Position numbers and translations under genes: made by a program. From NCBI RefSeq assembly GCF_003018235.1, contig NZ_CP027437.1: a stretch of DNA of 64,000 nt; one strand, 5' to 3'. Numbering within the stretch: position 1 is the first letter of the stretch; each line of letters begins with the position of its first letter. Origin of the DNA: Escherichia coli (GTDB lineage Bacteria > Pseudomonadota > Gammaproteobacteria > Enterobacterales > Enterobacteriaceae). Shown here piece by piece: positions 2,855 through 5,528 of this stretch. Under the pieces are notes generated by a model. The model ran no database searches and was not told the DNA's origin. It saw only the letters and a list, made by a program, of their open reading frames with translations.

Positions 2855-3334
2855 ATGAGTTCTGATTACGCAGGAGAACTCATGATCTGGATAATGCTCG
2901 CCACGCTGGCGGTAGTGTTTGTGGTTGGTTTTCGGGTGCTGACATCCGGGGCCAGAAAAGCGATTCGCCGTCTCAGCGATCGGCTGAACATCGATGTCGT
3001 ACCCGTGGAGTCGATGGTCGATCAAATGGGAAAGTCAGCCGGTGACGAATTTTTACGTTATTTGCATCGCCCGGATGAGTCGCACCTGCAAAACGCCGCG
3101 CAGGTGTTGCTTATCTGGCAAATTGTCATTGTCGATGGTAGCGAACAGAACCTGCTGCAATGGCATCGGATTTTACAAAAAGCCCGTCTTGCCGCGCCGA
3201 TTACCGATGCTCAGGTCAGGCTGGCGCTGGGTTTTCTGCGCGAAACCGAACCTGAAATGCAGGATATTAATGCTTTTCAGATGCGCTATAACGCGTTCTT
3301 TCAGCCTGCCGAGGGCGTTCACTGGCTGCATTAA
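2855..3334 (+). CDS. yicN: YicN family small membrane protein (DUF1198); true start may be ATG at 2882 (MIWIMLATL)
   Basis: ORF translation contains N-terminal hydrophobic helix and matches remembered YicN sequence. Confidence 0.75.
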   Translation: MSSDYAGELMIWIMLATLAVVFVVGFRVLTSGARKAIRRLSDRLNIDVVPVESMVDQMGKSAGDEFLRYLHRPDESHLQNAAQVLLIWQIVIVDGSEQNLLQWHRILQKARLAAPITDAQVRLALGFLRETEPEMQDINAFQMRYNAFFQPAEGVHWLH

Positions 3335-3337
3335 AAC

Positions 3338-3412
3338 CGCTTCGTCTTATCAGCCTACAGACCGCGCCTGACCTGTAGGGTGGATAAGGCGTTCACGCCG
3401 CATCCGGTATCG
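3338..3412. repeat. REP/BIME-type repetitive extragenic palindromic element
   Basis: Imperfect palindromes cgtcttatcagcctacag / ctgtagggtggataaggcg and gcgttcacgccgcatccggta typical of E. coli REP units, located just 3' of yicN. Confidence 0.65.
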
Positions 3413-3449
3413 GAACTGACAGTAGGTGAACGCATTATCTACGTTCTAT

Positions 3450-3773
3450 TTACAGCAGCACCTCCAGCCCGTGTTTTTGCACAATGCTGAGCAGTTTTAA
3501 TGAAATGCCATTGGGGCGTTTAGCGCCACTTTCCCATTTTTGTACAGTTGAAACGCTGGTATTGAGATAGTGAGCGAAGACGGGCTGACTCACTTTTAAT
3601 TTTTCCCGCAGTGCTTTTATCTCAACAGGTTGTAAGTCTTGCACGCTGGTCAGGCAGGCTTTGTCAAAAGTACGCATCGTTTCGGCAGAAATAGCATTGA
3701 CGCTGGACAATCCAGCCGCTGCGCTGTGAATAGCCTCAAATGCAGGACTTTTAAATTTAGTTTTTGCAGTCAT
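3450..3773 (-). CDS. HTH XRE-family antitoxin (putative addiction-module antidote), 107 aa
   Basis: C-terminal helix-turn-helix segment (LREKLKVSQPVFAHYLNTSVSTVQKWESGAKRPNGISLKLL); overlaps upstream toxin ORF by 17 nt. Confidence 0.6.
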   Translation of the reverse strand: MTAKTKFKSPAFEAIHSAAAGLSSVNAISAETMRTFDKACLTSVQDLQPVEIKALREKLKVSQPVFAHYLNTSVSTVQKWESGAKRPNGISLKLLSIVQKHGLEVLL

Positions 3774-4116
3774 AGCAGATCTCTGTCAGTTCTTTAGTGT
3801 TAATCATTGCTGTCAGTTGGGCTTTCGTCAGGAAGGCATAATGCTTTGCAAGTTCACGAAACCCAGCCAGTTCCTGACTATTAATGTTCGACATATCCTG
3901 TTTTGCATATAAAAACGTGTAAAACCAATTGCTTCCCCCTTTCGCCAGAATAATTGCACGCTCACGATTTTTGTGAAGGCGCTTTTTAAAAACGCCACCA
4001 CCAAGTACATCAGCTTTACCTTGTTCCGTTTCTAAAATGGCCCGGCACAACTCTTCATCTGTTATTGCATGAGACCTGGCTTCCCTTGCAAACCATTTGG
4101 TTTTAAACACGCGCAT
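3757..4116 (-). CDS. RelE/ParE-superfamily-like toxin (putative addiction-module killer), 119 aa
   Basis: Small basic protein encoded immediately upstream of and overlapping an XRE antitoxin (toxin-first order as in HigBA-type modules); family assignment from recalled motif pattern, not searched. Confidence 0.5.
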   Translation of the reverse strand: MRVFKTKWFAREARSHAITDEELCRAILETEQGKADVLGGGVFKKRLHKNRERAIILAKGGSNWFYTFLYAKQDMSNINSQELAGFRELAKHYAFLTKAQLTAMINTKELTEICYDCKN

Positions 4117-4343
4117 ATCGTTGAGATCCTGTTATTAAAGTATATCACCAAGTGCAATACTTTATCCCTTATTCCCAACCTAATCGCGAAAATGCATATC
4201 ACCTTGCCCTATGATTTTTATTTCTTCGAGCAGCCTCGAACTTTTCCCACAACACCGTAAAAGTTGCAAAAACGTTAAATGCGTCACACATTTCAATGTT
4301 AAAGTGGTCGGCTTTTCCCCTGAAACATGCCACGGGTAACACC

Positions 4344-5528
4344 ATGAGTGAATTTATTGCCGAAAACCGCGGCGCGGATGTCATCACCCGACCGAACTGG
4401 TCAGCCGTTTTCTCGGTGGCGTTTTGCGTCGCCTGTCTGATTATCGTTGAGTTTTTGCCCGTCAGTTTGTTGACGCCAATGGCCCAGGATTTAGGCATTT
4501 CGGAGGGGGTTGCCGGGCAATCGGTGACCGTGACCGCTTTTGTGGCAATGTTTGCCAGTTTGTTTATTACCCAGACAATTCAGGCCACTGACCGCCGCTA
4601 CGTTGTTATTTTGTTTGCCGTTTTGCTGACGCTCTCCTGCTTGCTGGTTTCCTTTGCTAACTCATTCAGTTTGCTTTTAATTGGTCGTGCCTGTCTGGGG
4701 CTGGCGCTGGGCGGGTTCTGGGCGATGTCGGCGTCGCTGACCATGCGTCTGGTGCCGCCGCGTACGGTGCCGAAGGCGCTGTCGGTGATCTTCGGCGCGG
4801 TTTCTATTGCGCTGGTGATTGCTGCGCCGTTGGGCAGTTTTTTAGGCGAGCTTATCGGTTGGCGCAATGTCTTTAATGCGGCGGCGGCGATGGGCGTGTT
4901 GTGTATTTTCTGGATTATCAAATCATTGCCTTCGCTGCCAGGCGAACCCTCGCATCAGAAACAAAATACTTTCCGCTTATTACAACGTCCGGGTGTGATG
5001 GCAGGGATGCTCGCCATCTTCATGTCTTTCGCCGGGCAGTTTGCTTTCTTCACGTATATTCGCCCGGTGTATATGAACCTGGCGGGATTCGGCGTGGATG
5101 GCTTAACGCTGGTGCTGTTGAGTTTTGGTATCGCCAGCTTTATTGGTACGTCGCTTTCGTCGTTCATTCTTAAACGTTCGGTAAAACTGGCCTTAGCAGG
5201 CGCGCCGTTAATACTGGCAGTGAGTGCGTTGGTGCTGACGTTGTGGGGAAGCGATAAAATCGTTGCTACCGGCGTGGCGATTATCTGGGGGCTAACTTTT
5301 GCATTGGTTCCTGTCGGCTGGTCAACGTGGATCACCCGCTCACTGGCCGATCAGGCAGAAAAAGCCGGGTCTATTCAGGTGGCGGTTATTCAGCTTGCTA
5401 ATACCTGTGGCGCGGCAATCGGCGGTTATGCGCTGGATAATATTGGTCTGACTTCGCCGTTGATGTTGTCCGGCACATTGATGTTGCTGACGGCGTTATT
5501 GGTCACCGCAAAGGTGAAAATGAAGTAA
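4344..5528 (+). CDS. nepI: Purine ribonucleoside efflux pump (MFS), 395 aa
   Basis: ORF 4296-5528; conserved start [12 protein letters not shown] at 4344; 12-TM MFS profile; matches remembered NepI/YicM. Confidence 0.85.

Follow-up and report, generated by a model that had tools for sequence, protein, structure and literature searches.

Two small overlapping genes between yicN and nepI on the chromosome of Escherichia coli (RefSeq assembly GCF_003018235.1, contig NZ_CP027437.1) probably constitute a type II toxin-antitoxin (TA) operon of the HigBA-2 kind, with a PF06296 toxin and a HigA-2-like antitoxin, that is ancestral at this site and has been deleted in K-12-like strains. The stretch of this contig that we analysed, referred to here as the window, is 64,000 nucleotides long. 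Its open reading frame (ORF) listing contains two minus-strand ORFs, both beginning with ATG: the upstream one (3757–4116) encodes 119 residues and the downstream one (3450–3773) 107, and they have 17 nt in common (3757–3773). The flanking genes, yicN (2882–3334) and nepI (4344–5528), are both on the plus strand and are named through the RefSeq annotation of near-identical genomes.

The original prediction for this region, made from the letters alone, described a toxin-like gene overlapping a downstream XRE-type helix-turn-helix (HTH) gene by 17 nt, in toxin-first, HigBA-like order, next to a repetitive extragenic palindromic (REP) element. The ORF listing bears out the gene arrangement, hidden Markov model searches place the two products in the RelE/ParE superfamily and in Pfam HTH_3, and the REP element is present. 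The toxin-first order also holds, the closest characterised system being specifically HigBA-2 of Vibrio cholerae.

By homology with that system, the toxin would bind the ribosomal A site and cleave mRNA as it is translated, the N-terminal segment of the antitoxin would wrap and block the toxin, and an antitoxin dimer bound to TAGCAC-N3-GTGCTA would shut off the operon's own promoter. The position of the antitoxin start codon inside the 3' end of the toxin gene suggests translational coupling, through which the antitoxin would be translated.

The lengths of 119 and 107 residues and the 17-nt overlap are identical in seven genera, Escherichia, Citrobacter, Klebsiella, Salmonella, Dickeya, Yersinia and Morganella. 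Across genera, non-synonymous differences in both genes (0.08–0.26 per site) are far below the saturated synonymous differences (0.56–0.94 per site). Both genes are therefore under purifying selection and, with their lengths and overlap also constant, are not chance ORFs.

The toxin

The toxin matches Pfam family PF06296 ("RelE") over its full length, with residues 1–113 aligned to model positions 1–120 (E 5.5e-41, 140 bits), and all 120 homologues among the matches listed carry the same family. PF06296 includes V. cholerae HigB-2 and is associated with toxin-then-antitoxin gene order and ribosome-dependent mRNA degradation (RelE/ParE superfamily review, Gerdes 2025, PMC11980606). The V. cholerae HigB2 (VcHigB2) sequence, confirmed over residues 44–98 by PDB alignment, itself scores in PF06296 at E 3.3e-8.

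An AlphaFold2 model of the toxin (mean predicted local distance difference test score, pLDDT, 87.4; predicted template modelling score, pTM, 0.81) was compared with the PDB by Foldseek. The top ten matches are all VcHigB2, with a Foldseek probability of 1.0, template modelling (TM) scores of 0.54–0.61 and 21–22% identity, and are followed by Cami1, M. tuberculosis HigB1, YoeB and YafQ. As modelled, the toxin has the RelE/BECR fold, a β-sheet with flanking helices, and is nearest to HigB2.

Two independent alignments place Arg46, Arg53, Tyr70 and Lys72 of the toxin on Arg51, Arg64, Tyr82 and Lys84 of VcHigB2, at which alanine substitutions lower activity 170- to 3000-fold (Hadzi 2017, PMC5416850). 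We therefore predict these four as the active-site residues. Among 34 diverse toxin homologues, Lys44, Arg46, Arg53 and Lys72 are conserved in at least 90%.

In every carrier examined, RefSeq annotates the toxin as "type II toxin-antitoxin system RelE/ParE family toxin" and the antitoxin as "helix-turn-helix domain-containing protein"; some annotation pipelines call an E. coli pair HigB-2/HigA-2. The RefSeq prokaryotic genome annotation pipeline (PGAP) starts the toxin at GTG 4110, giving a product of 117 residues. The conserved start is nevertheless the ATG at 4116: in all the other genera compared the gene begins ATG-CGN-(GTA/ATT/ATC/GTC), and codon 3 is GTG in Escherichia alone. Upstream of the toxin start, ACAGGATG is kept in nearly all related loci.

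The antitoxin

Pfam HTH_3 covers residues 52–96 of the antitoxin, which thus has an XRE-type HTH. Its best solved relative is V. cholerae HigA-2 (VcHigA-2), matched by phmmer over residues 46–102 (5JAA_A, E 8e-10). When toxin and antitoxin are modelled as a fusion joined by a linker, the HTH superimposes on the HigA2 C-terminal domain (5J9I) with TM scores of 0.82–0.85, a root-mean-square deviation (rmsd) of 1.0–2.0 Å and 37–40% identity.

The N-terminal segment of HigA2 is the toxin-neutralising part of that protein (V. cholerae HigBA-2 literature). In the present antitoxin, residues 8–40 (KSPAFEAIHSAA...TMRxFDxxCL) are nearly invariant in 33 diverse pairs, and the fusion model shows the N-terminal segment as confident helices, with pLDDT about 90 for residues 10–24. 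Two other annotated families match the HTH part alone, with scores under their cut-offs: 41.3 bits for NCBIfam NF041265, NadS (cut-off 60), and 41.0 bits for TIGR03830, the MqsA family (cut-off 61.8).

The two genes also stay together. One genome per species was scanned, giving 80 loci in Enterobacterales, Beta- and Alphaproteobacteria, Acidobacteria and Gemmatimonadetes. In 79 of them the gene directly 3' of the toxin encodes an antitoxin homologue, the one exception being a locus truncated at a contig end.

The control region

A palindrome upstream of the toxin gene (Table 1) is the predicted operator. When the upstream regions of the seven genera are aligned, only this palindrome and the Shine-Dalgarno (SD) region are conserved, with the operator consensus TATAGCAC-N3-GTGCTATA. 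The survey was extended to the 79 species loci, from several phyla, that have enough upstream sequence. Within 120 nt of the toxin start, the core TAGCAC-N3-GTGCTA occurs without mismatch in 48 of them, with one mismatch in 21, two in 7 and three in 3. A core with at most two mismatches is hence found in 76/79 upstream regions but in 0/72 control stretches from the same loci, where the best site always has three or more. The median distance from operator to toxin start is 27 nt.

The E. coli site is the sole one in the window with two or fewer mismatches to the core; about two would be expected by chance, and this uniqueness is not significant alone. The weight of the E. coli assignment lies instead in the position of the site and its conservation across species.

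A predicted extended −10 element lies inside the right operator arm, and in other genera too a TGnTAnnnT motif is built into the right half-site. From the sequence, we place the promoter over the right arm of the operator, where a bound antitoxin dimer would occlude it. A consensus promoter and terminator scan returned only an internal promoter-like site, leaving the proposed promoter uncalled, and no terminator.

The predicted operator is placed like that of V. cholerae HigBA-2, a single inverted repeat whose footprinted sequence, TGTACGC-N5-GCGTACA, covers the −10 element (PMC11006873). The two operators differ in sequence, and all four base-contacting residues of HigA2 are changed in the antitoxin (Arg68, Glu71, Asn72 and Arg77 to Ser75, Gln78, Lys79 and Ala84), which fits the differing operators. 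The recognition helix of the antitoxin (LNTSxSTVxKWExGxK) is as conserved as the operator.

Three further observations concern this region. Operator core and recognition helix hardly vary between Enterobacterales, Acidobacteria and Gemmatimonadetes (loci L017–L096), which is unusually constant for the repressor and operator of a TA system. A direct copy of the right half-site lies at 4191–4203 (AATGCATATCACC, compared with AAAGTATATCACC at 4137–4149), 54 nt nearer nepI. Erwinia mallotivora carries two pairs 13 kb apart on one contig (L037 and L047), one of them with a weaker operator (TGGCAC...).

The locus in other genera

The pair lies between a nepI-type major facilitator superfamily gene and yicN (DUF1198) in Citrobacter koseri and C. 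amalonaticus, in Klebsiella oxytoca, K. michiganensis, K. grimontii, K. indica and K. pneumoniae, in a gut enterobacterium and in two divergent Escherichia lineages. The K. spallanzanii locus is cut at the toxin start, so that only the yicN side is visible, and in Salmonella the pair adjoins nepI. Unrelated contexts are found in Pectobacterium, Erwinia, Serratia, Yersinia, Dickeya, Edwardsiella and Morganella; the Morganella copy is in an integrase-bearing island, beside helicase and nuclease genes.

In a neighbour-joining tree of toxin plus antitoxin, which has no bootstrap and is indicative only, the nepI-linked alleles occupy deep, long branches. The copies in variable contexts form a tight crown cluster that spans several families, the pattern expected of recent horizontal spread. 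The simplest history consistent with these sequences is that the pair has stayed beside nepI since the common ancestor of Escherichia, Citrobacter, Klebsiella and Salmonella. A caveat on ancestral residence is that toxin identities do not follow the species tree: the C. koseri toxin resembles that of Dickeya more than that of Salmonella. Unequal rates, or recombination that replaced alleles, may account for this.

Two contigs of about 1 kb from metagenome-assembled genomes labelled 'Collinsella sp.' (L018 and L058) carry E. coli-type and K. pneumoniae-type pairs with yicN/nepI fragments, and are almost certainly bin contamination.

Two alleles in E. coli and the polarity of the change

The yicN-nepI spacer is 1009 bp in the window and 210 bp in K-12, in line with the original prediction that the interval is empty there. 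Alignment of the two alleles defines an 840-bp stretch. Of 5426 complete E. coli genomes, 1716 contain this stretch in full, at 97.9–99.6% identity; it is never partial and always chromosomal, never on a plasmid. With a 120-nt probe spanning the K-12 junction, the empty allele was detected in 3667 genomes (about 68%), nearly always at 100% identity, and the two alleles together make up 99% of the complete genomes. The G+C content of the stretch, 43% compared with 50% for the window, fits an ultimately foreign origin.

The empty allele has 41 nt of its own, which hold a 19-nt stretch identical at 17 of 19 positions to toxin codons at 4013–4031. This remnant keeps the orientation and order of the toxin gene and recurs in all Escherichia alleles. 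Neither 500 shuffles nor 1000 genuine 41-mers taken from the window gave a score as high. At the left edge, the missing stretch begins after 3409, between the two units of the REP pair, and the K-12-type allele keeps the first unit only; on the other side, the 94 nt 5' of nepI are identical in the two alleles. No direct repeats of the kind that an insertion would suggest were found flanking the 840-bp stretch, and an RNA gene scan found no tRNA or other RNA gene marking the site.

We conclude that the polarity is one of deletion and not insertion, because the pair is syntenic with nepI in other genera, the nepI-linked branches are deep, and the empty allele is uniform and carries a toxin remnant. 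The simplest history, as read from these alleles, is that the ancestors of K-12-like strains lost the TA genes once, through a deletion at the REP pair. The original prediction had the pair inserted between yicN and nepI and proposed a presence/absence survey of E. coli: the difference from K-12 is real, but the direction of the change is the reverse, with the pair beside nepI in Citrobacter, Klebsiella and Salmonella.

A further copy, in E. coli HS-02 (L004, NZ_CP172818, 2877–3855; 79% identity), was considered as a decay intermediate and rejected: it has long T, C and G homopolymer runs over the TA region only, and looks like a consensus or assembly artefact.

Indirect signs of toxicity, and decay of the toxin gene

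The species loci give some indication of toxicity. In six of the 80 (L032, L050, L066, L085, L091 and L095) the toxin has an in-frame stop and the antitoxin is intact, whereas a broken antitoxin beside an intact toxin occurs in none. In two more loci, L094 has a toxin stop with the antitoxin beyond the contig end, and L052, from an insect symbiont, has both genes broken. Given the similar gene lengths, chance would place all six one-sided knock-outs in the toxin with a probability of about 0.02. This is the pattern predicted by an active toxin neutralised by its neighbour, and would be indirect evidence for one.

A like tendency is seen within E. coli, where the window and O157:H7 copies have five amino-acid differences in the toxin and an unchanged antitoxin. 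The ancestral toxin start ATG (4114–4116) has become ATA in 630 complete E. coli genomes, which include O157:H7, O145, O166:H15 and others, and is ATG in 1081. This loss probably explains the choice of GTG 4110 by PGAP. In O157 (L003, 4315–4317) the SD is also altered, from AGGAT to AGGAC. EC17GD31-type strains (L097, 1261–1875) have a toxin annotated as a frameshifted pseudogene and an intact overlapping antitoxin. Other E. coli lineages are thus disarming the toxin, by loss of the start codon in 630 genomes and by frameshift in some strains.

These observations raise the question of whether the pair is, in E. coli, a disarmed relic whose toxin is no longer effectively toxic or expressed. It would then persist mainly through its antitoxin, which would serve as a small, autoregulated HTH repressor or would guard against addiction by homologous modules entering the cell. 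We consider this unlikely. In its favour, besides the ATA start in 630 of about 1716 carriers and the frameshifted lineage with its intact antitoxin, the E. coli toxin is on the longest enterobacterial branch, being 67–71% identical to others that share 74–85% with one another; the window and O157:H7 copies differ at five toxin residues and at none in the antitoxin; the operator is degenerate in Escherichia; and the locus has been given up altogether by 68% of E. coli strains. Against this, the window copy keeps its ATG, its SD, the four catalytic equivalents and every near-invariant residue of the family. The ratio of non-synonymous to synonymous rates (dN/dS) among E. coli copies is 0.34 and so still short of 1, the ATG version is retained in 1081 genomes, and the antitoxin stays intact wherever the toxin is intact, as an active toxin predicts.

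Strength of the HigBA-2 assignment

Several points weigh against a functional HigBA-2-type operon, most of them concerning the toxin. Its similarity to HigB-2 is weak: HigB2 was missed by direct PDB searches with the single toxin sequence and with a 34-sequence profile, the sequence link is transitive, through a family member (P0252) that matches HigB-2 at E 0.03, and hhalign of the profile to HigB-2 gives E 0.0025 and a probability of 12%. The structural match to VcHigB2 has a Foldseek E of only about 3e-3 and TM of about 0.55–0.6. The toxin's β2-β3 loop is six residues shorter than that of VcHigB2, in which replacement of this loop reduces activity 120-fold (PMC5416850). No PADLOC-DB 2.0 or NCBIfam model claims the toxin, the E. 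coli protein is the most diverged of the enterobacterial set, and with the start codon lost in many carriers the toxin may be weak or silent in E. coli.

For the antitoxin, whole-chain superposition of the model on bound HigA2 is poor (rmsd 10.6 Å), the N-terminal segment not superposing. The E. coli operator is a two-mismatch version of TAGCAC-N3-GTGCTA, with one mismatch in each half-site. In the searchable literature (RefSeq accessions and E. coli HigB-2 work), we found no experiments on the nepI-linked locus or any close orthologue.

An abortive-infection or anti-phage role, in which infection would free the toxin and shut down translation in the infected cell, appears improbable. RelE/ParE-superfamily toxins have been discussed as defence toxins (Gerdes 2025, PMC11980606), the antitoxin has a full-length match to a family of phage proteins, phrog_2104 (E 1e-26), and the toxin a weak one to phrog_5869, and the Morganella island noted above has helicase and nuclease genes beside the pair. 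However, PADLOC has no model for the toxin and gives only generic HTH matches for the antitoxin; a single-protein scan of 2.9 million viral contigs found no close relatives of the pair; and the genes flanking the pair in E. coli and its relatives are housekeeping ones and do not form a defence island. Such a role would in any case be layered on the same mechanism and would not give the pair a different identity.

That the HTH protein mainly regulates the divergent nepI (purine ribonucleoside efflux), the association with nepI being one of regulatory coupling and not addiction, is very improbable: the pair shares a 227-nt control region with nepI in Escherichia, Citrobacter, Klebsiella and Salmonella, and the half-site copy lies on the nepI side, but pair and operator occur in dozens of species with unrelated neighbours, the operator is always about 25 nt from the toxin SD and is not placed relative to nepI, and 68% of E. 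coli strains express nepI without the pair, from a 94-nt upstream sequence that is the same in both alleles.

Comparison with known systems

The HigBA-2 system of V. cholerae (VCA0468/0469; PDB 5JAA, 5JA8 and 8A0X) resembles the pair in its PF06296 toxin and toxin-first order. VcHigB2 has a RelE-type fold with an Arg/Arg/Tyr/Lys active site in place of a His/Glu pair, as predicted here. VcHigA-2 and the antitoxin each have about 105 residues and end in an XRE HTH domain for dimerisation and DNA binding. In VcHigA-2 the toxin is neutralised by an N-terminal segment, and by homology that of the present protein would act likewise. Their HTH domains share 40% identity and, in the model, superimpose with an rmsd of about 1 Å. 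The toxins, in contrast, are only about 21–25% identical, a relationship invisible to direct HMMER search. The highly conserved N-terminal segment of the antitoxin is modelled as two helices, whereas that of VcHigA-2 is a helix and a strand. In genomic setting, too, the two differ, the present pair being at a core-genome site and VcHigBA-2 being a superintegron cassette.

The relE-yiaG modules of E. coli combine a PF06296 toxin that has an extended disordered N-terminus with a YiaG-like antitoxin (Gerdes 2025, PMC11980606). They share the Pfam toxin family and gene order with our pair, and the HTH antitoxin is related to YiaG, its match to the NF007481 model (E 1e-6) scoring well short of the cut-off. 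The toxin described here lacks the N-terminal extension, the Pfam model aligning from residue 1, the chromosomal site is another one, and the antitoxin resembles HigA-2 more closely than YiaG. TA27 (relE-1/yiaG-1) of adherent-invasive E. coli NRG857c was considered as the same locus and ruled out, as it sits between yiiD and fdhE.

The HigBA systems of Rts1/Proteus vulgaris and of E. coli K-12 are likewise toxin-first, with a ribosome-dependent mRNase of the RelE superfamily (by homology in the present case) and an XRE HTH antitoxin. Their toxins belong to PF05015 and PF09907 and differ in Pfam family and active-site layout from the toxin here; their antitoxins lack the HigA-2-type N-terminal neutralising segment, and Foldseek ranks them well below HigB2/HigA2. 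MqsRA is also toxin-first, and the antitoxin HTH has a sub-threshold match to the MqsA C-terminal domain. The antitoxin has no zinc-binding CxxC N-domain, however, and the toxin is not PF15723.

The REP pair and other neighbouring features

The coordinates of the features are collected in Table 1. Between the convergent 3' ends of yicN and the antitoxin gene lies what we take to be a REP pair, from the REP consensus, a second genomic match (H30) and a sub-threshold Rfam naRNA4 match. It has a REP core at 3382–3407 and an inverted, partial second unit at 3426–3442. The naRNA4/CssrE match covers 3378–3443 and scores 32.9 bits, below the gathering score of 59.5. A REP pattern search found one copy only in the window. 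The pair is likely to provide a shared hairpin 3' end for the yicN and antitoxin transcripts.

Table 1. Features of the yicN-nepI interval in the window; strand is given where it applies.
Feature	Position	Strand	Basis and remarks
REP pair, resembling a bacterial interspersed mosaic element (BIME-like)	3343–3443		Between convergent yicN and antitoxin 3' ends; inverted repeats I1, I3 and I4; fold hairpins; alignment with K-12
Stretch separating the pair-bearing from the K-12-type empty allele, 840 bp	3410–4249		Alignment with K-12
Antitoxin gene, 107 residues	3450–3773	−	Pfam HTH_3; similarity to VcHigA-2; downstream position in 79/80 species loci
Toxin gene, 119 residues, HigB-2-like, PF06296 'RelE'	3757–4116	−	Pfam; AlphaFold2 model; Foldseek; residue mapping; ATG conservation
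Shine-Dalgarno AGGA	4127–4130	−	10 nt 5' of toxin ATG; read from sequence
Predicted operator palindrome AAAGTATTGCAC-TTG-GTGATATACTTT	4137–4163 (core 4143–4157)	−	Inverted repeat I2; 21–47 nt 5' of toxin ATG
Predicted extended −10, TGaTATACT	4139–4147	−	Inside right operator arm; read from sequence; no good −35

On the other side of nepI, and beginning just after it, is a giant plus-strand ORF (5730 to beyond 13016, more than 2428 residues) with tandem immunoglobulin-like repeats of about 100 residues. RefSeq names it as the inverse autotransporter adhesin IatC, frameshifted in strain TCM3e1, between nepI and yicS. This ORF is absent from K-12 and from O157:H7. Since O157:H7 has the TA pair without the adhesin island, the two polymorphisms are independent, and the pair is separate from the large island, as had been proposed.

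Implications

The pair appears to be an uncharacterised but ordinary member of a known family, already annotated in about 1,700 genomes, and adds little on mechanism. Its value lies elsewhere. The empty K-12 site is a deletion scar and not the ancestral state, so that presence or absence relative to K-12 is a poor guide to insertions. The unusually invariant operator could be used to find and annotate HigBA-2-type modules.

The intact, start-less, frameshifted and deleted states found in E. coli form a natural series in which selection can be set against the decay of chromosomal TA modules. Tentatively, and with more doubt than we attach to the HigBA-2 assignment itself, the pair, instead of being a module that moved recently, may be one of the oldest fixed chromosomal TA loci in Enterobacteriaceae, with a near-invariant repressor-operator, and E. 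coli may present a time series of its dismantling, from intact through start loss and frameshift to deletion with a 19-nt scar. If it is indeed an old, fixed locus that is being dismantled, this series could show what, if anything, selects for a resident TA module.

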